NCBI GenBank assembly: GCA_000165345.1
Contig: CM000431.1
Span: forward strand, 736,001 to 800,000
Length of the DNA: 64,000 nt
Direction: 5' to 3'
The notes under the pieces: model-generated
What the model was told of the DNA's origin: nothing
The model's input: the letters and a program-made list of their open reading frames with translations, nothing else
Database searches by the model: none
Shown: in pieces, positions 3,001 to 56,469 of the stretch
How positions within the stretch are numbered: position 1 is the first letter of the stretch
How the letters are laid out: every line of letters starts with the position of its first letter
Program-made: the position numbers and the translations under genes

Positions 3001-5057
3001 TAAAGAGAGCTGAAGTTTATTTCTAGTTTATATCTGTTCTTTAAATCATTACATTCCAAAAACGCCCAATAAACTTGATTAATTTTATTTAAAGGAATTT
3101 TATTAATAGAATAGCGTTTATCGCCAGAGCCTGCCCAAAGGATACCATTCGAAACAATTTGTTTTGGAAGTACATGATTGTTTGAATAACTGTACTCATT
3201 TAGAAAAACTGATGATAAAAGGAATAAGCAACGATCAATATCTCCATTGGAAACGTGTTCCAACGTAATAGCTCTATCTGCTATCAAATTTAGTAATTTG
3301 TTTTTGTTAGTTACAAATGGGAATACTTGATTCACTAACCATGATGGAATTTCTTTTTCAATTTTCTCTGGCAAATTTACGGGCAAATTACTCAATGATT
3401 CTAATATAATTTCACTTCTAACTTCCTCATCGCCATCACCAAAGTGAATAAAGTGTCTGTTAAAAAGAAAAAAAAACTCCTCAACCAAGTTAAAAGATAA
3501 TAAGCAGTTACATAATTTTCCCAAGTCACATTTTAAAAATCTCTTTAATAAAATATCCCAATTTGTGTCGATTTCGTTTGGGTTAGAATCATATTCTGAA
3601 CATATTTTAAGTGCAGCTTCAAAATTTTTATAGTTATTTTTATAAATTATATCGAAAGTTATTGACTTTTGAATGATGTAGTTCATCTTCATTATGTGAG
3701 AATTACTCGAGTTTGAATTTTCAAGAGCGGAAATTAGTGAAGAAAGTAAATTTAGTGCATCTTCAACATTATATAAAGGAATTTTGTCTAAATACTCAAA
3801 TACATCATTCCAATCAACTTTTTCTGAATTAGAAATCAACTTTGTGAGTTGGGGAATTACTATATTAAATTTGAAAGCTCTATCGAACTGATTATTTAAT
3901 GTTTTTTCGGAATTTAAAATAATTTGTTCATCTTTTACGTTATAATTTTCAAATCTAGGAATTCTTTTGTCTTTAATTAAATTATAATTTGGTTCTTCTT
4001 CCAAAATATTAATGAGAATATTGCCGGTTTTCTCTTCTAAAGTACAACCTGCATAAAAAATAGTTGTTTCACACAAACCATGTGAGACAAAAGGAATAAA
4101 AGATGTGTTTAAGTCATTATAATTTGCTATGCATATTTCTGAAGAAATTTCGTGGCCTTTAAAAACCACTACACTAGAATCGTATACTATAATGTTTGCC
4201 AAAATATCGTCTAAAAATTTGGTCTGAGAAATATTAATAATATTATCTGGATCTTTGATATTGATTTTATTAGCCCTTAGTGGAATAAGGTTATCACTTG
4301 AAATGGCTATCTCAATTCCATTAAATGGAATTCCATCCTCGATATTCAAAAATATTACATTTACAATATTGCCTTTTACTGCTTTATAAAACGAAATTAG
4401 TTTAAAATCACATTTTCCCAAAGACATGTTTAAGATCTCTCCAATGGACAAAGAGTCTATCATTGTGCATTTAATCGTATTGCTATCAATATAAAATTTT
4501 TGTATAAAACTCGAATTTACAACAAATATCCCATTCTCGCATGGTGTTGCTCCTTTACTTTCGGTTGTTATTATGTTTCCAATTTCAATGGAATAACCTG
4601 AATTGAAGCGATCAATAGAAACAGGGAAAAAACCAGAAGAAAAATTAACTATAGCAATGATTCTTTGACGATCAATTGGTATATTAGAGAAGTTATCTAT
4701 TAGTATAATCTCGGAGTTTTCAATAGTTTTTGTTAAACCATGTTTCGCAGTTTTTACTTCGAGGACTGATTCATTTTCCAATGCAAGTAAATACACTGAA
4801 CTGCTGCTTAATATTATAAATAAATTATTATCTATCCATATACCATTTAATATTAATTCTTCCTCTGAATTGATCTTCCAAGAATAAATTAATTTCGCGT
4901 TCTCGTGATCTTTCGTAATTATAAAGAAAAATACTAAGTTTTCCACAATGATAGATAGCCTTTCATTGAAAATGGTTACCTTTCGAATACTATTTGTGTA
5001 TTTTTGCAAGTTTAGACCAGGTAGACTTCCTAGTTCGATTACTTTTTTTAGATACAT
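1..5057 (-). CDS. Large protein (>1680 aa within window). The N-terminal third looks beta-propeller-like and the rest is a long alpha-helical repeat region. The stop codon lies beyond the window start, so the gene is partial at its 3' end.
   Basis: I reverse-complemented and translated by hand from the ATG at 5057-5055 (minus strand). The reading is MYLKKVIELGSLPGLNLQKYTNSIRKVTIFNERLSIIVENLVFFFIITKDHENAKLIYSWKINSEEELILNGIWIDNN... and it continues protein-like for ~5 kb with no stop I could find, down to position 1. An in-frame TGA lies upstream at 5123-5121. The ORF track lists no complete ORF of >=60 aa on either strand in 1..4947, which is what a single open frame without a stop inside the window would produce. 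Product family cannot be assigned. Confidence 0.55.
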   Translation of the reverse strand, partial: MYLKKVIELGSLPGLNLQKYTNSIRKVTIFNERLSIIVENLVFFFIITKDHENAKLIYSWKINSEEELILNGIWIDNNLFIILSSSSVYLLALENESVLEVKTAKHGLTKTIENSEIILIDNFSNIPIDRQRIIAIVNFSSGFFPVSIDRFNSGYSIEIGNIITTESKGATPCENGIFVVNSSFIQKFYIDSNTIKCTMIDSLSIGEILNMSLGKCDFKLISFYKAVKGNIVNVIFLNIEDGIPFNGIEIAISSDNLIPLRANKINIKDPDNIINISQTKFLDDILANIIVYDSSVVVFKGHEISSEICIANYNDLNTSFIPFVSHGLCETTIFYAGCTLEEKTGNILINILEEEPNYNLIKDKRIPRFENYNVKDEQIILNSEKTLNNQFDRAFKFNIVIPQLTKLISNSEKVDWNDVFEYLDKIPLYNVEDALNLLSSLISALENSNSSNSHIMKMNYIIQKSITFDIIYKNNYKNFEAALKICSEYDSNPNEIDTNWDILLKRFLKCDLGKLCNCLLSFNLVEEFFFLFNRHFIHFGDGDEEVRSEIILESLSNLPVNLPEKIEKEIPSWLVNQVFPFVTNKNKLLNLIADRAITLEHVSNGDIDRCLFLLSSVFLNEYSYSNNHVLPKQIVSNGILWAGSGDKRYSINKIPLNKINQVYWAFLECNDLKNRYKLEINFSSLYYKKISNRDIAFKLLSRISSSELLNYEINHHVIPFCKIRGLEADQIIMEYLLELISSINYNSLESNLNSTDGKKYYQPRIISLINSITNDEYKAHALLQYLSLNNKCLAIDRNIDLKFPHSAQNEIDFLMSYAKNISVNGKKSFELKNRIALIDAQNLLSRYNLDSMASIILFEKNAPRRLILHVISQVDAGIESFNDAMFLIDYLKQETNTTFMGISEAYCLRLRFLIFRRRNIIEWEKMTKKSIKEIHNKTIEEDILDIFSNVDCKKIYSITQQFVCFVWQFLDCYSKNCIKSNRLKIRCEIATYSAVVVLRELFKTIQENKWKLRQNTFWTSNESFNTLIRLQQLQFEFGIYIRPSDIMIDKMDHDQNCLIGKEIQDKMTYLEPIQNKNTLSNPFGKIEADLCNKQIIDESFISEWRNGYFQLYKESCYIKLCEIFDEFAQPYFEKKISDEKKKGIFTKLLRLGSLIGVDESYIRRTNIRNSLRDGGKLCIFRRLTQELFKTPSSKNAITIVDEVQNIILNLLTVDLVDKKKNYAAKFDKESRIDGLELIFIFSKLLQVVATCIPYCPIKLISFVLALSSDILWVHDFLLYASDAIDNIENPNNKLISNHLDNHLFSKIIMKSLKNLHFLPLDSYKSYYKEICTLYPFTDAKQIVMAFLYTKIRIFKELSKQISIKKIYISPFLIYNFWTDPTLWTIQTNENYPIDVGKYIQELRENVDVLAKQLYQSECLTLAMSIYLKHPLLISDVKLALNINTEFFRKVLKGRDPIDGQLCMALSSSLEKKDSWNVFVQSLNPSNILDNYYRTQRMARIGWDLGILFNHYSMRKEMEDLHKQSKWCNSFRQLKIEFDQSLFFQKQDPQNNNQGYKKSIICKLIHKSDFDLILCLQYAKDYNINDEYILFLWSKQMILHNFDPKFELIMQNILSFVTPELGKEIFESTFEFISSFNYERLKFVLNWYNKNCINTIELPNSMNAYLRTEANNEYSTSSSSSEINKG

Positions 5058-23800: not shown

Positions 23801-25128
23801 GAAATAGGTGTTAAATAAAAGCAAAGGGCTGATAAATTAATCGAAGTTTTGTCTATACTTGAAATTTCATATTTAAATCTTGAAATCCAAATTACAAGAG
23901 ATTGCAATCCATACGCTGAGTCTTCATCTGACTTGTAATCAGTTATTAAGCACGCCAATGAGTGAAATGATACTTCAAAGATTTCATGATTATTAATAGG
24001 ATTTTTAAATTGAACAGCATCATGTATCATTGAGCAACAAAGAACTAATCCTCGGTAAAATGCCACTTGACAAACATTCGAAAATTTGCATTTTTGAACA
24101 TGCTCTTTAACATTTTTCGCAATTTTATTCATGCTTTTTATATATAAGTCATTTTTATCATCATACGTAACTTGTTCACTAATATACAATAATGACAAAA
24201 ATAGTCCAATTGATGTTATTAAATCTTTGTTAAATTTGTCAAGACTATTTGAGCACAAAATTCTGTAAAAAATAGAATTAATCACCTTTTTCGTAATTTT
24301 CCCATCCTTGTGTTCGCCTAAAACAGTATTAAAAAGAATTTTAGTATATTTTATTAAACTACTAAATGAATTGCTGCAGCATATCACAATACTAGAAATA
24401 CGGTTTAATATAGATATAATGGATAATAATATTTGCTGATCAATTTCAAAATAATGATCTATAGTATTTTCCATATTATTACTGTTTAGAAAAGATGTTA
24501 TTTTGTAAGCAAAATCTGGGGTTTGAAGTAAATAAATTAATATTTTTTTTAATACCAAATCTAAATTATATATTCCTTCAAATAATATTGGTAATACATT
24601 GTTAGAACGTAAAGTTTCTTTGTTATTAAGTCCTGCAGACGAAACTAACATTTCAAATAAGTCGTTGAGGATAAATTGAACAGAATAAATATATTTTTCA
24701 ATTAACAATTGATTTTCTCCCTTAAGTAAGTTAGAATTATTAGTATAAAAATCTGTATTAATATCTTCAATCATATTTTCCACAACAAAATTGACCAAGT
24801 TATTAAAACTATCAAGGACAAATTGGGTGTATTCTGAAATATTTGGTTGAATTATCTTCGATTTCTGCATAAAGCTTCGTAGGTAATTCAATAATTTTCT
24901 CTTTAGGTTTCTGTTATTTTCTACGAAAGCAATTAGTAGTAGTATTAGGCAACAGGACCTACTTATGCTAGAAACGTCTGTTGAACATATCTTCCCTTCT
25001 GCATTTCCATATTCGAAATCAATTTCTAGACCTAATCCAATTTCACGAATGATTTGAGCAACATCTTTCTTCACATAAGGGTATCTATAAAAATATCTAT
25101 TTGATAATTTGATCAATAAATTATTCAT
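17863..25128 (-). CDS. Very large (about 2420 aa) hypothetical protein, probably an alpha-helical (HEAT/ARM-like) scaffold
   Basis: The ORF is uninterrupted. The track start at 25146 is GTG and the first in-frame ATG is 25128 (MNNLLIKLSNRYFYRY...). No catalytic or nucleotide-binding motif is recognisable. A leucine/isoleucine-rich helical repeat character runs throughout. Confidence 0.6.
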   Translation of the reverse strand: MNNLLIKLSNRYFYRYPYVKKDVAQIIREIGLGLEIDFEYGNAEGKICSTDVSSISRSCCLILLLIAFVENNRNLKRKLLNYLRSFMQKSKIIQPNISEYTQFVLDSFNNLVNFVVENMIEDINTDFYTNNSNLLKGENQLLIEKYIYSVQFILNDLFEMLVSSAGLNNKETLRSNNVLPILFEGIYNLDLVLKKILIYLLQTPDFAYKITSFLNSNNMENTIDHYFEIDQQILLSIISILNRISSIVICCSNSFSSLIKYTKILFNTVLGEHKDGKITKKVINSIFYRILCSNSLDKFNKDLITSIGLFLSLLYISEQVTYDDKNDLYIKSMNKIAKNVKEHVQKCKFSNVCQVAFYRGLVLCCSMIHDAVQFKNPINNHEIFEVSFHSLACLITDYKSDEDSAYGLQSLVIWISRFKYEISSIDKTSINLSALCFYLTPISDIIFSFLDQPINYHSKLANQILEEFVDYLLVLDSIFEQDIIEEISSGPLNWFMNLILNNSFNNNKNKFLSLNILFNGILNHSKNHKFKNQFCKLNRFINLSIDQLDLTQLDHSFVEIQLIYYLVYSLSIHNISSSSQNLILAWFNLGKRVFLKEEINNGLEENFFLDFILFTSIQIIKRDHNNFEKKEIITPEGKSDIFTRILQILKKADRKYYYEKLPLIFDRFFEEILRLDNSFITELNFIQIQTLIELKRSECLFWENEFEGGDYLTNNFSLVVIFDSKKKPYSKIHGDYFIKTLTSNNSISLSRILELLSLSIKPSEMKNLSERNCLLNEMECLYIIICNIKPLNICSGVLSRIISIFGQFFILSNKILLNKTFPLKIRDVYYSWLHKIFNFLRTSIGLQISSDKVDLYLPIFLLFLETFSFEDLNGDLFDCSIILKRCIVESVMPNIQSQLFSSSNECKNLVNNLLINNKKFCKIFDQFHFNTIQPHNLPSFNRAFSILKKLSKIIRPREYYVSNILLYYYMKKLSIDLESQRESIIILLKTLFNLKNFEMLDIINNIYFFLSEVIFFELITRIQNFCSNNFDINVLIFGNNNIPLQSIINLLNMSFISEFIFNSENNFKRLCWNLLKILYLFTLLLFILSDSEFISNYSNKFHDELIQELDPSERFYNQNLNQNFSRIIEEVCNFIKIILAKITIDSIFEESHNQLNSIPNDFITSNLYLNSFLNRLNIAFNSKKCYYFSYKLCIIYINFILKCDHPGSSENLLEIFYAIINSYSTKLFESSHEKQSKNKGFKLPITRIHILINNEAAKTFNDFILMSSHSILNKAKIQDLTYYKSSLNKQTDNLPKNLLLHILYSLLSFDELSSDCNNDKFNHREVENCILDYEQIDNIFFQFFDGYTKSGYVNNEFITTNSFYDTNKLFLLHGNLNNNLEKLYIPPPKRKSNNLCNIINILVSIIIKDFKLHKLVKYTIKLLIIASLNINLFNGIINKQDYDSDYILFQRYRCSIHSNHILAKLISKSKSSSGTNTLCEIFDLSLLCGSLFSAFNNIKIYDLKVKDENGFALCNSSLNLMSALLKRFSFKANGIESNIEYISKTNNRCEILNNDFKTTPGSDDLPILFNKVLKDVLSIVLNKQFDYNCVNSLISEINTSTRFSLKSIKRISGIFEPCIIDILLNSTHTQFQGMVLLLLTEISISWADCSYELAICIIKSIYSSSYFVRMYSSKLLGEIIFLTLNIPNLSLHPLNEISNANLDGILLEIFINNSNNQASKANSLLNLIFQSIKFSINNSENKYNLIHGILNLGIVLMKKFKNQSCWNSFKSIDNSIYENLLVFIRDSFTTFKHPLLRITALELMSLLFELEFPINEKSNCLENLIYYWKNISSKSKTLYIDFSNLNNNLYLSISHPKNYFNENLSEHIYLIKIIVNNVFKYIDSGELNSLICLSPAFDKIIHPKILLEFYSSIIDILSISEKKDTFVQKLFNLIDNNLKSIKHLISANNKEQYINEKTKIRKLSILTDLVKVLTGCLSFIGYNYKLSFVFLENEQSDSIIESVFDLIYHQELSKYKTSEGEDENSEEKTDIDLINSKIGRFFFEDQIAILEFSIFFIRFYKNIARHDSIPYFIVYELEKIVFDKILKMVCNNICNGTQLTLEKKCLICKIIRTIFESLETELFLEIKVEKNDRIRNLFCTKIGINDIHEGTILFLLCFNHNYWYNLMVCLIYLITDEAASIENKAILTFNSFIHIIKYFCSNFLHQNEDSHGSGLNCYNEYENQIKQIVLLNDQNSCLFSIIILDVISESLRSMETQNNSVFFPREIDNICNEYLNISQVATCQIFKYFKAISQKTLNSDEISKIELHFEQWGTQIKSQINLFKRVYDCIKECPTQLISIELFGSVLIDEVSILTFVISIRKLIIISKYREINNREDIFENSSFYISFFEKRLDFLLSNIHEKKINFSNYNAKDFAGNLTK
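17876..17887 (-). promoter_or_regulatory. TTTTGCGGGGAA (minus strand), an E2F-like element 45-57 bp upstream of the TBC gene ATG and inside the last codons of the upstream giant gene
   Basis: Read directly. The spacer between the two genes is only 32 bp. Confidence 0.35.
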
Positions 25129-25773
25129 AAAAAGATAATTTAGCACTGAAAAAAAATACTTAAACTGAAAGCTAATTGTATTAATATTAATAGATTTTTA
25201 GAGCAAATAGATTAGACTAGGAATTTTGGATTACCTGCTATTAAAGAACGATATTCATCAACCAATCCAATAAGATGGAATTTCAGACTGGGGCGACAAG
25301 GAAGTCGTCATGAATCAACGCAAATTGTCAATCATCATACACTCCAATACTTACTGAAAATGCGAAGACCAAGGCTAATTGAAATTCAATACCTTAGTAG
25401 AATAATAATTTGAGCTCAGTTATTAGTTGTTTCTTCAAAAATACAATATTTCAGAAACACGGAAACCAAATACATCATTGCATTTAAAAATCGCATTTAA
25501 GTGATAAACTCCATCCGTAATAGAGGTAAAATCGATCCCTAAGCCATGGTAAACTTACGAATAAATTATAATCTTCACATTTCATTTAGGACACGGTAGT
25601 ATATAAAATTAATCTAGCTTAGCAATAATTTGATAGTTTGATAAGAGCCTCAGGACAATACATTATGCCGTCTAATTAAACTCGGCGCCCATGTCATTTT
25701 CGCCTTGAAAGAGATTCGAATGATTTGAAGCCAATTCCTTTTTTCGCAAACAACTTTTTATTAGACTGCTATT

Positions 25774-28747: not shown

Positions 28748-28829
28748 TATTTCATAGATTATCAAAATAATCTACATTACGAATTTATAATCTTACGGCC
28801 TTTTAGTGGTACATTTCAATATTAATAAT

Positions 28830-28850
28830 CCCACATGTTAAACATGTGGG
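28830..28850. promoter_or_regulatory. Perfect 21-bp palindrome CCCACATGTT-A-AACATGTGGG in the divergent MAPK/PKA intergenic region
   Basis: Read directly from the sequence: 10-bp arms that are exact reverse complements around a single central A. It lies ~85-100 bp upstream of the MAPK ATG at 28747. Confidence 0.5.
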
Positions 28851-29098
28851 CATTTTACCGCCTTAGCTACGGCACGACGTTCTTTGAGTGGAAATTATGA
28901 AGTTACAAAAAATTTACAACCAAATATTCATTGAAAAATTTATTAAAGGAGTTGAAAGTGTGTCGCCAATTACAAGTTAATAAAATGAATTTGAATGGTA
29001 AAAATTTAATTGATACATATTTTTAGCGAATAAGCAATAGTATATAGAGCTTCTAGATTTAATTTTTTTGTATTGCAATTACAAATTTGAATAATCAT

Positions 29099-29127
29099 GG
29101 CGCCCTAAGCGCCTATGTTCATGCATG
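29099..29127. promoter_or_regulatory. GC-rich element GGCGCCCTAAGCGCC (inverted GGCGC arms) followed by the palindromic CATGCATG
   Basis: Read directly. It lies ~200 bp upstream of the PKA ATG, in a stretch that is GC-richer than its surroundings. Confidence 0.45.
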
Positions 29128-29321
29128 ACAGAAAAATCAGCGAGTGTAGACGGAGTGTGCAAAGCGAATTAATGTCTTAGTCTATAGTGTTGTATCTAAA
29201 GCCGTGCTCTCGCTCATATTTTTATAGCTATACACATACTTCGGTCCCAGACAATAATTATATTATATTTTTTGCTTAGTACCGTAGGGGACTTAATTTG
29301 GTATTATTCAAATTATTACGA

Positions 29322-50205: not shown

Positions 50206-51627
50206 TTATTTACTTTTGTTTGCATGAATGAATTTTTTAAGTTTATTAGACTTTTTCTGAATTATTTTTAGATGGTCTTGAATTGACCTATTTTCAATAA
50301 TGTAAGGATCTCCGCTATTCATTATAAAAGAGTATAGAATCTCATATTCCGTGCATTTCATAATCAGTGAATAGATTACTTGGTCAATTATTCTTATGAA
50401 TTCTTCTGAATTGATCAACTCTTTGATTCTATGTAATTTATCTAAAGTTTTACACTCCAAGACTTTGTTCGTATGAAAAGAAGAATAGCTGCAAGCATTA
50501 AATATTAGGAGAATTACCGGAATAATTATCTTTTCTACAGAATACTTTAAATATGTTAATGTAATTTCGACTCCCTTCGAATAAATAAAAATCATACACC
50601 ATTTTTCTGATATTTTTATTAGCCTAATTAATGAAATAATAATTGGGAATGCAATACTGTTTGTACAATTCCTCAAATCGTTTTGTTTTAATACATCAAG
50701 AAGTAATCCGATAATTCCCATATAAACTAATTGTTTGCATTCTTTTTCACTGCCTTGAGTAATAATTATTCTACATAAAATTTTAATTGTTTGTAACCTT
50801 ATTGGTACGCATTCATCATACATTAAGACGAATATTGAAGGACATAATTCCAATGGCTGGATAAAATCTAATGCTAGACAATCTTGGCTATCTGCCTCTA
50901 CCATTTTAATAATAGTTGAAATATATTTAATACCCCATATTCTCATTGAAATATCGTCAGAAAATATTAACTCAGATATTTCATTTTTTAATTTAACCCA
51001 CGTGTATGAAGCTGCAGTTGGAGAAAATCGAATTAATCCTATTATTGTACGTAATAGTGCATTCTTCAATCTATGGGTTATACAATTATCATTTTGTTTC
51101 TTAAAAATTTGGATTAACAATTCCAATAATCCAATCTTAATTGCAACTCTGCAAAACATTGGTTGTTCTTTTTCGATGAAATGAAATAATATTAATGATA
51201 ACAATTGTTCAACCTCGCTTGTGTTACTTTCGTGATTTTCATTTAGAGTGATTTCAAAAATATTAATTATTGAATATAAAAATGATTGATTTGACAAAGT
51301 CTAATTAATGAAGTTTTCAAATTTATAGGTGATTAATTTAACTTACTTGAATAGTTTCATTCGGGAAGATTCTAGCATATGTTGCAAGTATATGTAAAAT
51401 AGATATTCTGATTTTCATCTAAAAAAATTTGAATTAATTTCATTACTTGCTTTAATTCAACTTACATTAAGCTTTATTTCATCTTTATTATTTGGAGCTC
51501 TGTAAGTTGGAGAGTGCTTTATTAATAATTCAACAGCATCTGGGCAAACTACCTGTGGAGATACAAGCTTCTCGAAAAACCCACATCTTGCAAAATGAGA
51601 AATTTTTCTAATAAAAGATAAATTCAT
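50206..51627 (-). CDS. Three-exon gene encoding a helical-repeat (ARM/HEAT-like) hypothetical protein. Exons are 51627..51466, 51418..51347 and 51300..50206 on the minus strand.
   Basis: The track ORF 50206..51297 starts at TTG, and its first in-frame ATG is 46 codons further in. Immediately upstream on the minus strand lies an AG acceptor (cattaattAG, at 51302-51301) preceded by a GTAAGT donor (51346-51341). The 72-nt exon ATGAAAATCAGAATATCTATTTTACATATACTTGCAACATATGCTAGAATCTTCCCGAATGAAACTATTCAA follows. A second intron follows, running GTAAGT (51465-51460) ... tttttttAG (51420-51419). A 162-nt first exon then begins with the ATG at 51627 and translates MNLSFIRKISHFARCGFFEKLVSPQVVCPDAVELLIKHSPTYRAPNNKDEIKLN. 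All junctions are phase 0. An in-frame TGA sits upstream of the first ATG. Confidence 0.6.
51301..51346 (-). other. Intron 2 (46 nt, GTAAGT...TAG)
   Basis: Read on the minus strand: gtaagttaaattaatcacctataaatttgaaaacttcattaattag. Confidence 0.55.
51419..51465 (-). other. Intron 1 (47 nt, GTAAGT...TTTTTTTAG)
   Basis: Read on the minus strand: gtaagttgaattaaagcaagtaatgaaattaattcaaatttttttag. Confidence 0.55.
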
Positions 51628-54378: not shown

Positions 54379-55035
54379 TTAGTTTGAAGAACAACCATTT
54401 GAAAAGCAATTTCCTCCTCCTCTTCTATCTGATCTAAACAATTGAAACCCTCCAGTTTTACCATTATTTTCTGTGCTCATACTGTTAGAGTCCAGCTTTT
54501 TGGTGTTTGGAAGCTTTCTTGCAATCTCCTCAAATAGTTCTTGGACATTATATCCAGTTTTTGCTGATGTTTCGAAGCTCAGTATTCCTTTTTCCTTAGC
54601 GTAGTTACGTGCTGTTTCAGAGTCCACAGTTCGACTACTTTCTAAGTCATACTTATTCCCAACTAAAGCAACAACAATATCATTGTTATTTATATTCTGT
54701 AGTTCTGATATCCATGACTTAGCCCCTTGAAACGTTTCTACATTTGTAATGTCGTAAACCACAATTGCTGCCGCAGCTCCTCTATAATACATGGGTGCAA
54801 GACTTCTGTATCTTTCTTGCCCTGCTGTATCCCAAATTTCGAACTTAACAGTATAATCATCATCAACATTTACCGATTGAGTCATAAAGGCAGCACCGAT
54901 TGTTGGTTCCTGATACTCATGGAATTCATCCTTTGAGAACCTAACTACTAAACATGATTTTCCAACTGAAGCATCCCCCAACAAGACCAATTTCAGATGC
55001 AATGTTTTTGGAGTTTTTATTGCTGTCTGAGACAT
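54379..55035 (-). CDS. RAB5: Rab5-family small GTPase
   Basis: G1 GDASVGKS, the RabF motif [40 protein letters not shown], the NKxD-like GNKYDL and ETSAK are all present. The C-terminus [11 protein letters not shown] carries cysteines. ATG confirmed. Confidence 0.8.
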
Positions 55036-55533: not shown

Positions 55534-56469
55534 TTAATTCACTTTATTTGAACTTACCCAATTGTACGATCTAGGAATAAAACCTGGAATGTAGTTGGAA
55601 TATGATTTCATAAAACCATTGATTTGAGAATTAGCAACTCTAAATGCATATTGAACAAAAGGATCAATAGGATATTTCAATCTTATCAAACTCCAGTATA
55701 TGGAAATATAAACTATACTGATTCTTCTTGTAAGCACTGCAAAGAAAATATAAATTCCCACTACAAATACTTCAAAATATGCTTTTCTTTGATACAATTT
55801 GTTTTTGTTTTTGTTAGCGAGGTCGAAAATATTAATTATTTGAATATTGTTTACAATAGGTTGGTATTTTGATACAATGAATAATGAAGTAATTGCAGGA
55901 ATGAAAAATATCATAGGAAATGAATAGATTAGACCAAAATATGCAACAACCGAAATTAGTGAGTGGAATGATTCTTCAATAAGGATCTTTTGCCAAAAGT
56001 CAATGGAAAGCAATTTAATAGGTTTAATTGAAATATCATATAAGTGTGATCCAAGACCCAGAATGTAAAATAAAGAGCTTATTCGTACAAGTAAATACGT
56101 AAATTTAGATCCACGAATGATTGGAAGGAAATTCAAAATTGGAATTATTGATGAAATCAAAAGTGAAATAGAAAGTGATAATATCATCCATTGTTTGTAT
56201 CCTGTGGAAAGTAATAGTTTTGATTCATTACTTTTGGCTTGGGAATTAAAGCTCGAGAATTTACTCTCTTCTTGATATTTATTATAGTTATGTTCTTTAA
56301 GTTGTATCTCAAGATTAGGGTTCACATTCTTTTTAAACCATTTCCTTTTAAAAGTGGTTAGTTGAGATGCAGATGGCGTCGGGTAAAGATTATTATAATA
56401 TTGCTGCCATAATGTGCTCTTTGACCAATCATATTCCAAAAACTCCTTCTGTGCTTCTTCAGGAGTCAT
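55534..56469 (-). CDS. Multi-pass membrane protein (311 aa), family not assigned
   Basis: ATG confirmed. A hydrophilic N-terminus of about 85 aa is followed by 5-6 hydrophobic helices (LSISLLISSIIPILNFLPII, ISSLFYILGLGSHLY, LISVVAYFGLIYSFPMIFFIPAITSLFIV, VFVVGIYIFFAVL). Confidence 0.5.
   Translation of the reverse strand: MTPEEAQKEFLEYDWSKSTLWQQYYNNLYPTPSASQLTTFKRKWFKKNVNPNLEIQLKEHNYNKYQEESKFSSFNSQAKSNESKLLLSTGYKQWMILSLSISLLISSIIPILNFLPIIRGSKFTYLLVRISSLFYILGLGSHLYDISIKPIKLLSIDFWQKILIEESFHSLISVVAYFGLIYSFPMIFFIPAITSLFIVSKYQPIVNNIQIINIFDLANKNKNKLYQRKAYFEVFVVGIYIFFAVLTRRISIVYISIYWSLIRLKYPIDPFVQYAFRVANSQINGFMKSYSNYIPGFIPRSYNWVSSNKVN

Follow-up and report, generated by a model that had tools for sequence, protein, structure and literature searches.

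The spacer upstream of cgd3_3010

The window analysed here is a stretch of 64,000 nucleotides (nt) of Cryptosporidium parvum chromosome 3 (assembly GCA_000165345.1, contig CM000431.1, positions 736,001 to 800,000 of the forward strand), and all coordinates below are counted within it unless another contig is named. Its GC content is about 30%, and its open reading frames (ORFs) are long and mostly without introns. The subject of this work is the spacer between two genes of the minus strand: the giant ORF cgd3_3010 (CPATCC_001313, 17863-25128, 2421 residues) and, upstream of the spacer on the same strand, the eIF2B-delta gene (CPATCC_001317, 25774-26847). Counted to the ATG of the giant ORF, the spacer measures 645 nt. 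A preliminary description of this DNA had noted two GTAAGT motifs and a 3' splice-acceptor signal here, and had suggested a missing 5' exon of the giant gene, or else a small spliced gene or non-coding RNA. Our analysis points to two box C/D small nucleolar RNAs (snoRNAs), which we call snoA and snoB, and to an intron in a non-coding leader of cgd3_3010 as their likely carrier.

The giant ORF and its neighbours give identical or near-identical matches to C. parvum proteins, and 701 nt around the spacer are 100% the same in C. parvum IOWA-ATCC (CP044420.1) and two further C. parvum assemblies. Adding 739044 to a window position gives the position in CP044420.1, where the locus is likewise on the minus strand. 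Orthologous spacers were obtained from 11 other species or lineages: C. meleagridis, chipmunk genotype I, C. ubiquitum, three Logan lineages, C. canis, C. felis, C. xiaoi, C. ryanae and C. muris. Together with C. parvum these are the 12 species referred to below. All of the contigs found for the flanking proteins in Logan and NCBI were genomic. In 12 of 12 species MAPK is followed by eIF2B-delta, the spacer and the giant gene in this order, with a spacer length of 599-764 nt.

Two predicted box C/D snoRNAs are conserved in 12 species

Neither Rfam at gathering thresholds nor ARAGORN found an RNA gene or a tRNA anywhere in the window. In a permissive Rfam scan the sole matches with E<=1 in the 64 kb were to C/D snoRNA families, and they fell at two spots on the minus strand within the spacer. 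The spot at 25483-25411 matched SNORD63 and snoU18, and that at 25341-25272 matched snoTBR7 and SNORD31. The orthologues match SNORD18 (C. xiaoi), snoTBR7 and SNORD31, and in cmscan alignments their guide segments stand in register with the family consensus. Best scores were 25.4-28.6 bits for the snoA families, where gathering thresholds are 41-47, and 23.3-34.4 bits for the snoB families (snoTBR7 30-34, SNORD31 23-25), where they are 40-45. The elements of the two snoRNAs are as follows.

25411-25483, minus strand: snoA, a U18/snR18-type box C/D snoRNA (sub-threshold Rfam matches, conservation)
25478-25472, minus strand: snoA C box, AUGAUGU
25469-25455, minus strand: snoA D' guide, UUGGUUUCCGUGUUU
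25454-25451, minus strand: snoA D' box, CUGA
25437-25432, minus strand: snoA C' box, UGAAGA
25419-25416, minus strand: snoA D box, CUGA
25276-25346, minus strand: snoB, a U31/snR67/TBR7-type box C/D snoRNA with a terminal stem
25346-25341 and 25281-25276, minus strand: strands of the snoB stem
25338-25332, minus strand: snoB C box, AUGAUGA (followed by UUGAC)
25311-25305, minus strand: snoB C' box, AUGACGA
25298-25287, minus strand: snoB D guide, UGUCGCCCCAGU
25286-25283, minus strand: snoB D box, CUGA

Both snoRNAs are present as single copies, in the same order and 65-83 nt apart, in all 12 species. The boxes and guide of snoB are invariant from C. parvum to C. muris, and the D' guide and D' box of snoA are invariant bar one D'-box base in C. 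felis. The distance from C box to D box is 63-65 nt in snoA and 56-64 nt in snoB. The D' CUGA and C' UGAAGA of snoA are both conserved, as is the C' AUGACGA of snoB. No conserved D' box and no second target was found for snoB in the 12 species, and the antisense candidates on the D side of snoA and the D' side of snoB are unconserved and lack a consistent rRNA match. In C. xiaoi and C. ryanae snoA has AUGAUUA as its C box and AUGA as its D box, so that U6-A1 takes the place of the K-turn pair G6-C1, a compensatory change.

The terminal stem of snoA is short (2-3 base pairs, bp), with longer external stems in several lineages. The stem of snoB is 6-9 bp long; its sequence varies by clade while complementarity is kept, the forms being UGGAAUUU/AAAUUCCA, UAUGGGUA/UAUCCGUA, GAGCAA/UUGCUC and UUGGCAA/UUGCCAA. 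Cognate strands gave a mean duplex energy of -8.4 kcal/mol, against -3.9 for cross-clade combinations and -3.5 for shuffles. In a covariance-model alignment both sides were changed at nine of nine pairs and 86% of cells pair; slid controls reached 30-57%, and none of 500 shuffles equalled the observed values. This alignment was fitted to the model, and the duplex energy test is independent of it. On sequence evidence, snoA and snoB are almost certainly real snoRNAs.

Several other candidates in the spacer were rejected. None of its small ORFs (all of 36 residues or fewer) is conserved, and this includes a 33-residue ORF at 25585..25484, beginning MKCEDYNLFVSLPW, that overlaps the conserved donor described below and ends at the 5' edge of snoA. 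An automatic gene caller had reported the same ORF on a Logan contig (L136, 4263-4364). The C-box-like TTGATGAAT at 25261 was not accepted as a third snoRNA because a D box is absent and the sequence varies among species. When the whole window was compared with conserved rDNA words by strict 10-mer matching, no further snoRNA candidate came up; the criterion is strict enough to miss snoA and snoB too.

The presence of a snoRNA locus would explain why the spacer is long, relatively GC-rich and conserved. The preliminary description called it the longest gene-flanking spacer, which holds between same-strand neighbours; among all inter-ORF gaps it ranks third, behind gaps of 956 and 733 nt. It had also been called GC-richer than its flanks. 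At 31.7% GC it does exceed the giant ORF (25.5%), but not the upstream eIF2B gene (33.0%); most other spacers are at 20-29%. The excess is located in snoB (41.8%) and in the stretch from the 5' splice site to snoA (34.7%). One other long spacer is unusually GC-rich, 28766-29297 (532 nt, 31.8% GC), which separates the MAPK gene from a plus-strand ORF as a divergent promoter region; the permissive Rfam scan gave no match in it, and no search aimed at RNA genes there was made.

Guide sequences and predicted rRNA targets

Pairing with large-subunit rRNA (LSU) was tested on the 25 contigs of at least 5 kb among 120 eukaryotic LSU-bearing metagenome contigs, which are generic loci and not the Cryptosporidium LSU. 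The loci were picked by the snoA target sequence, and the snoA result therefore speaks for uniqueness only. The snoA guide forms 9 Watson-Crick pairs at LSU AAACACGGA, or 10 with the C of the box counted, and a further 5 pairs across a 2-nt bulge. The snoB guide has one 12-bp site, which lies about 2 kb 3' of the LR3 site, includes two G-U pairs and reads ACUGGGGCGGUA or GCUGGGGCGGCA. According to the fifth-nucleotide rule, the predicted target of snoA is the bracketed A of GAAAC[A]CGG, and that of snoB the bracketed G of ACUG[G]GGCGG.

U18 corresponds to LSU Am649 in yeast and to PFS13 in Plasmodium falciparum, and U31/snR67 to LSU Gm2619 and PFS5 (PMC2656528). From its guide, snoA appears to be the Cryptosporidium equivalent of U18/snR18 and should direct 2'-O-methylation at the site of yeast 25S Am649. 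Likewise, snoB appears equivalent to U31/snR67/TBR7 and should direct methylation at the yeast Gm2619 site. Both families were assigned on the identity of guide and target, and not on score. Compared with U18, the snoA guide has an extra UU that splits it (UUGG-UU-UCCGUGUUU) and that is invariant in the 12 species.

A conserved, probable 5' splice site upstream of snoA

The preliminary description placed an exon-like segment, ATGAAATGTGAAGATTATAATTTATTC, at 25585-25559 and a donor GTAAGT at 25558-25553, and both are present there. We annotate this region as follows.

25551-25558, minus strand: 5' splice site GTAAGTTT, the first donor of the preliminary description (12-species conservation)
25559-25650, minus strand, start approximate: putative non-coding first exon, which includes the ATG segment 25585-25559

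A single GTAAGT precedes snoA in every one of the 12 species, at a distance of 72-84 nt from the C box. When 288 hexamers upstream of the C. parvum snoA were tested, GTAAGT alone was kept at a like distance (within 12 nt) in 11 of 11 other species, and it is retained in four of four distant species, where the flanks no longer align. Its persistence at a fixed distance from snoA in every species indicates that GTAAGT is very probably a real 5' splice site, as had been predicted, and we consider it likely that this is the donor used. The conservation of the donor, like the two snoRNAs and their conserved guides and targets, is shown by the present analysis. Published Cryptosporidium introns begin with GTAAGT in 84% of cases and have a median length of 61 nt and a mean of 82 nt, with a branch consensus that is not clear (PMC2483917).

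GTAAGT occurs 10 times on the minus strand of the 64 kb, against about 22 occurrences expected from base composition. The depletion is about two-fold on both strands (10 and 10 observed, about 21-22 expected), which fits selection against cryptic 5' splice sites where introns are defined by this hexamer. Because the hexamer is depleted in the window, the two copies in 627 nt are unusual, their density being some 20 times that observed (Poisson P about 0.005); of these, the first copy alone is conserved.

RNAalifold pairs GUAAGUUU (25558-25551) in nine species with AGUUUAUC/AAAUUUAC (25511-25504), which lies about 45 nt downstream. As the two sides hardly vary, there is no covariation either way, and RNAalifold gave no supported fold for the stretch from the 5' splice site to snoA.

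This pairing bears on a different explanation of the locus, namely an independent, unspliced dicistronic snoRNA gene that would have its own E2F-like promoter and be cut by nucleases, with GTAAGT kept for another reason, such as U1 binding that leads to no splicing, or pairing with AAAUUUAC. Polycistronic snoRNAs are known in plants, yeast and trypanosomes, and in P. falciparum as PFS11/12 (PMC2656528). Such a gene would also suit the conserved segment with which GUAAGUUU pairs and the hairpin found between snoA and snoB in the C. parvum subclade. However, GTAAGT is the consensus 5' splice site of these organisms and persists where all flanking sequence has diverged, while the segment that it would pair with shows no covariation and is not conserved in C. 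xiaoi, C. ryanae or C. muris. We regard an unspliced cluster as quite improbable.

The 3' boundary of the proposed intron

The acceptor named in the preliminary description was a pyrimidine tract and CAG directly before the giant ORF. The tract exists, at 25159-25146 and not at 25160-25147, but it makes a poor acceptor. The T8-CAG ending at 25146 appears as CAG, AAG or CAGGG elsewhere and is absent in C. felis, and its use yields a stop, since 25559 joined after this CAG reads ...TTC and then TGC TAA. Nor does the giant ORF open in phase 0 after an in-frame TAA at this point. The G of the CAG begins a GTG codon of the ORF's own frame, and this frame is open up to an in-frame TAA at 25200-25198, so the ORF does not open right after the CAG; the TAA that had been seen, at 25142-25140, is out of frame. 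A conserved candidate lies slightly further upstream.

25165-25190, minus strand: best 3' splice site, TTAATATTAATACAATTAGCTTTCAG, with its AG at 25166-25165 (conservation and intron form)
25146-25159, minus strand: gtattttttttCAG, the acceptor of the preliminary description, unconserved
25165-25558, minus strand: proposed 394-nt intron with both snoRNAs, the best model, with a predicted 3' boundary

The conserved element near the ATG reads TTAGyTTTyAG, then TTTA, and its AG (25166-25165) and TTTA are invariant in nine species. A pyrimidine-rich AG lies 19-43 nt before the ATG in 12 of 12 species, usually with TTAAY ahead of it. The form of the 25165 acceptor, TTAAY...T-run...YAG, is shared with four real introns in the window. 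Conservation of this acceptor and its matching form favour a 394-nt intron from 25558 to 25165. The combination of this acceptor with the giant gene as host is, in our estimate, an even bet at best.

The four introns with which the acceptor was compared are evident and short (46-53 nt), with the form GTAAGT...TTAAY...T-run YAG.

55557-55509, minus strand: short intron
51465-51418, minus strand: short intron
51346-51301, minus strand: short intron
60714-60662, minus strand: short intron

They imply upstream exons for the ORFs 54379-55035 or 55534-56469, for 50206-51297 and for the minus-strand gene at about 60.7 kb, and the single-ORF models there are therefore incomplete.

Three further elements of the spacer resemble splice signals.

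25349-25354, minus strand: second GTAAGT, C. parvum-specific, probably incidental
25354-25362, minus strand: pyrimidine tract and AG (CATTTTCAG), an alternative 3' splice site for an intron with snoA only
25200-25261, minus strand: conserved block TTGATGAATATC...TTTAATAGCAG, then GTAATCC...TTCCTAG, which includes GTAATC at 25234-25229

The second GTAAGT is present at 25354-25349, where it had been reported, but it does not hold up as a splice signal. It is specific to C. parvum and lies just 5' of the snoB stem; in its place C. meleagridis has ATAAGT, chipmunk genotype I TTAAGT, the L004 species GTAAAT and C. canis GTAAGC, and in C. ubiquitum it is deleted. The copy is probably incidental. Recursive splicing at TTTTCAG/TAAGT (25354) was rejected because there is a single G at the site and the end of exon 1 would not regenerate GT.

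Beside the second GTAAGT is the AG at 25354. Every species has an AG at 5-12 nt from the 5' end of the snoB stem, although that of C. xiaoi, C. ryanae and C. muris is weak or falls within the stem. If this AG were used, each splice would carry one snoRNA: donor 25558 and AG 25354 would bound a 205-nt intron with snoA only, and snoB would lie in the next exon or 5' untranslated region (UTR), to be freed via its terminal stem, a second intron, or a recursive step from 25237/25234 to 25165. In the intestinal-clade species the AG is preceded by a pyrimidine tract, and the 3' end of snoA is 57-75 nt away from it, a spacing that Hirose and Steitz, in 2001, reportedly found to be favoured for intronic C/D snoRNAs in mammals. 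The short stem of snoA in C. parvum and the 6-9-bp stem of snoB, which could support splicing-independent processing, would fit such an arrangement, and snoRNAs in UTRs have been reported in C. parvum (PMC9465071). Against it, the AG falls within the snoB stem in C. xiaoi and C. ryanae and has no pyrimidine tract in C. muris, and processing an exonic snoRNA would destroy the mRNA.

The recursive step involves the GTAATC that had been noted at 25234-25229 and is indeed found there. It is part of a block of about 60 nt, 3' of snoB, that is kept in eight intestinal-clade species only, with the consensus TTGATnAATATC...TTTAATAGCAG, then GTAATyCAAAATTCCTAG. This block looks like a 3' splice site followed at once by a weak 5' splice site, an arrangement expected of a zero-length exon or a recursive splice site; RNAalifold found no consensus fold in it. 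The succession of CAG and GTAAT is kept in most of the eight species, as recursive splicing would have it. Yet the internal donor is non-consensus and variable (GTAATY, GTGAAT, GTAAAT), and C. felis, C. xiaoi, C. ryanae and C. muris lack it. Overall, we judge a scheme of one snoRNA per splice to be unlikely.

The upstream exon is predicted to be non-coding

The conserved donor makes an upstream exon plausible, but a non-coding one. The start of the giant ORF is annotated as follows.

25126-25128, minus strand: start codon of the giant ORF (orthologous N-termini)

The ATG at 25128 is present as the preliminary description had it, which also held that a model starting there might be incomplete. 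For the upstream exon to be coding, the segment from ATG 25585 to 25559 would have to be spliced onto the giant ORF, and ATG 25128 would not be the true start. The sole in-frame join, at acceptor 25165, gives an open frame in C. parvum and chipmunk genotype I, where joining to 25165 (or 25159) would add 19-21 residues, MKCEDYNLF(FK)YFFSVLNYLF. In C. meleagridis, the closest relative, this join is broken by a 1-nt indel in the T-run, and the other nine species lack the ATG or an open join, bar one in-frame join with a weak acceptor in C. muris. ATG 25585 itself is absent in C. ubiquitum and more distant species, the exon-like segment contains non-triplet indels, and the acceptor originally proposed gives a stop. 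Furthermore, in the eight other species aligned the annotated N-terminus starts at the homologous methionine (MxxLxxxLxxRY) and aligns from Met 25128; C. muris is ambiguous, as the weak homology of its N-terminus does not allow the true start to be placed. With an unconserved upstream ATG and orthologous N-termini that start at ATG 25128, a coding 5' exon is unsupported, and we give it next to no chance. What survives of the preliminary proposals is therefore the non-coding RNA, in the form of two box C/D snoRNAs, and an upstream exon that is plausible if non-coding.

In C. muris RN66 (DS989732.1; L009, 4845-4909) the giant-gene model starts at ATGATGATTGAC, which is the snoB C box (ATGATGA). 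The frame is open for 55 codons through snoB to the next ATG at 5011, and the exon-like segment of this species ends in ATG, followed by GTAAGT (4622-4630). The start codon at the snoB C box is probably mis-called. In some species (C. parvum and chipmunk genotype I, with 21 additional residues, and C. muris) the snoRNA-bearing intron may lie between a micro-exon with the start codon and the rest of the giant ORF, although we consider this highly improbable. If true, a single splice would couple translation start to snoRNA production, or coding sequence would contain a snoRNA.

A promoter-like block and the host transcript

Upstream of the putative exon lies a further conserved element.

25653-25698, minus strand: promoter-like block rTGACATrGGCGCC...TTAGACrGCAnAATGTA, kept in nine intestinal-clade species

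The block includes an E2F-type core, GGCGCC, at 25689-25684, about 130 nt upstream of the donor; the E2F motif has been defined as [A/T][C/G]GCGC[G/C][A/T] (PMC12246861). The putative first exon is placed between this block and the conserved 5' splice site. RNAalifold found no conserved fold in the promoter-like and exon-1-like region. We take the conserved E2F-like block to be the presumptive promoter of the host transcript.

The same block bears on whether the intron could belong to the upstream gene, either in the 3' UTR of eIF2B-delta or in the inter-cistronic UTR of an eIF2B-delta/cgd3_3010 polycistron. The two genes are co-stranded and their order is kept in the 12 species. C. parvum polycistrons with E2F motifs in internal UTRs have been described (PMC11761812, PMC12246861), and snoRNAs occur in 3' UTRs in Plasmodium (PMC2656528). 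However, an AATAAA lies 12 nt past the eIF2B stop codon (25762-25757), the E2F-like block between that stop codon and the donor looks promoter-like, and neither gene is named in the polycistron paper's main text, as far as its accessible part goes. An intron of the upstream gene is accordingly a very improbable explanation.

The giant protein gave no Pfam match even at E=10 and no PDB match with a six-species profile. One C. hominis entry is labelled 'HEAT repeat-containing protein 1' in UniRef, which could not be confirmed, and a literature search found no paper mentioning cgd3_301x or cpbgf_300301x. The C. meleagridis protein is 87% identical to that of C. parvum. The C. canis model P0006 (2935 residues; L005, 3001-11830) merges the giant gene with the downstream RabGAP-TBC gene, whereas the two are separate in every other species.

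GenBank tags of the adjacent protein genes run 001311, 001312, 001313 and then 001317, 001318. As the tags CPATCC_001314-001316 are skipped at the spacer, three non-protein features are probably annotated there already, two of which would be accounted for by snoA and snoB.

A proposed leader intron as carrier of both snoRNAs

The reading that we favour, with a probability of roughly 0.6, is that the two snoRNAs lie in a conserved non-coding leader intron of cgd3_3010 and that the gene is not missing a coding exon. The locus as such is very probably intron-hosted in a non-coding leader. In the route that we infer (transcription start, exact acceptor, the giant gene mRNA as host, and processing alike), transcription would start downstream of the E2F-type element near 25690, and a short non-coding exon would end at 25559. 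The intron from 25558 to TTTCAG at 25165 (394 nt) would be spliced out, joining exon 1 to a 36-nt leader before ATG 25128. The excised intron would then be debranched and cut between the two small nucleolar ribonucleoproteins (snoRNPs), after which exonucleases would trim to the snoRNP-protected ends.

A hairpin, ACUAAGGUAUUGAAUUUCAAUUAGCCUUGGU, is found between the snoRNAs at 25398-25368 on the minus strand in the C. parvum subclade, with spacer fold z-scores of -1.9 to -3.4; there is no equivalent in C. xiaoi and C. ryanae. It could be the entry site for the cut that separates snoA and snoB.

Several points weigh against the leader-intron reading. Every Rfam score is below the gathering threshold (23-34 bits against 40-47), and the UU insertion in the snoA guide limits its continuous pairing on generic LSU to 9-10 bp. 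A 394-nt intron would be about six times the Cryptosporidium median, a length beyond typical introns, as expected if it has to carry the snoRNAs, and the variant with snoA only would be 205 nt. Other AGs, the pyrimidine-tract AG at 25354 and TAATAGCAG followed by GTAAT at 25237, allow an intron with snoA only or a multi-step splice. Two snoRNAs in one intron need an endonucleolytic cut, and no genus-wide conserved cleavage structure was found. Finally, the host may be a separate non-coding RNA or eIF2B read-through in place of the giant gene mRNA.

The published C. parvum C/D list (PMC9465071; Table 8 of PMC12246861) holds U3, SNORD36, SNORD96 and three others; the loci listed are cgd2_3583, cgd5_3935, cgd6_3219, cgd7_1545 and cgd7_5107. 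Chromosome 3 is not represented in this list, nor are the U18 and U31 types. The C. parvum catalogue, in which only some six box C/D snoRNAs have names and no guide for the U18 or U31 sites occurs, is very incomplete. The present analysis would add two near-universal rRNA methylation guides, with covariance-ready alignments over 12 species. It also flags a probable unannotated leader exon and 394-nt intron for cgd3_3010, and exposes at least one gene model, in C. muris, with a snoRNA C box as start codon. The general view of snoRNAs and introns is unchanged; Plasmodium, plants and animals all offer familiar cases of snoRNAs that are clustered or hosted by introns.

Comparison with known snoRNA systems

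Two snoRNAs in one intron have precedents in P. falciparum, where PFS15 and PFS16 share an RPS27a intron, and in the intronic clusters of rice and Arabidopsis (PMC2656528). The locus described here differs from PFS15/PFS16 in that the spliced intron is a predicted one, proposed in a non-coding leader and not between coding exons, and in that the host has no recognisable function in the ribosome or translation. The C. parvum snoRNAs published by Li et al. in 2022 (PMC9465071) are of the same organism and RNA class; they are intronic, intergenic or in UTRs, and stand beside many unnamed conserved small RNAs.

The box C/D architecture of snoA is that of SNORD18/U18/snR18/snoU18 (RF00093, RF01159, clan CL00047) and PFS13. 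Its D' element, in which UCCGUGUUU runs directly into CUGA, is in the consensus register of the U18 family, and its predicted target is the A of GAAACACGG (Am649). It departs from the family in its sub-gathering score, the UU insertion, an unconserved D-side guide and its host context. U18 is hosted by RPL4 introns in human and by the EFB1 intron in yeast. In P. falciparum, PFS13 lies downstream of RPL7a, unlike snoA in its setting (PMC2656528).

snoB differs from SNORD31/U31/snR67/snoU31b/snoTBR7 (RF00089, RF01285, RF00295) and PFS5 in its sub-gathering score, its covarying external terminal stem of 6-9 bp and the lack of a conserved D' box. It resembles them in its D element, (G/C)CGCCCCAGU running into CUGA in the same register, and in its unique 12-bp match to LSU ACUGGGGCGGUA, the Gm2619 site; with TBR7 it also shares the UUGAC that follows the C box.

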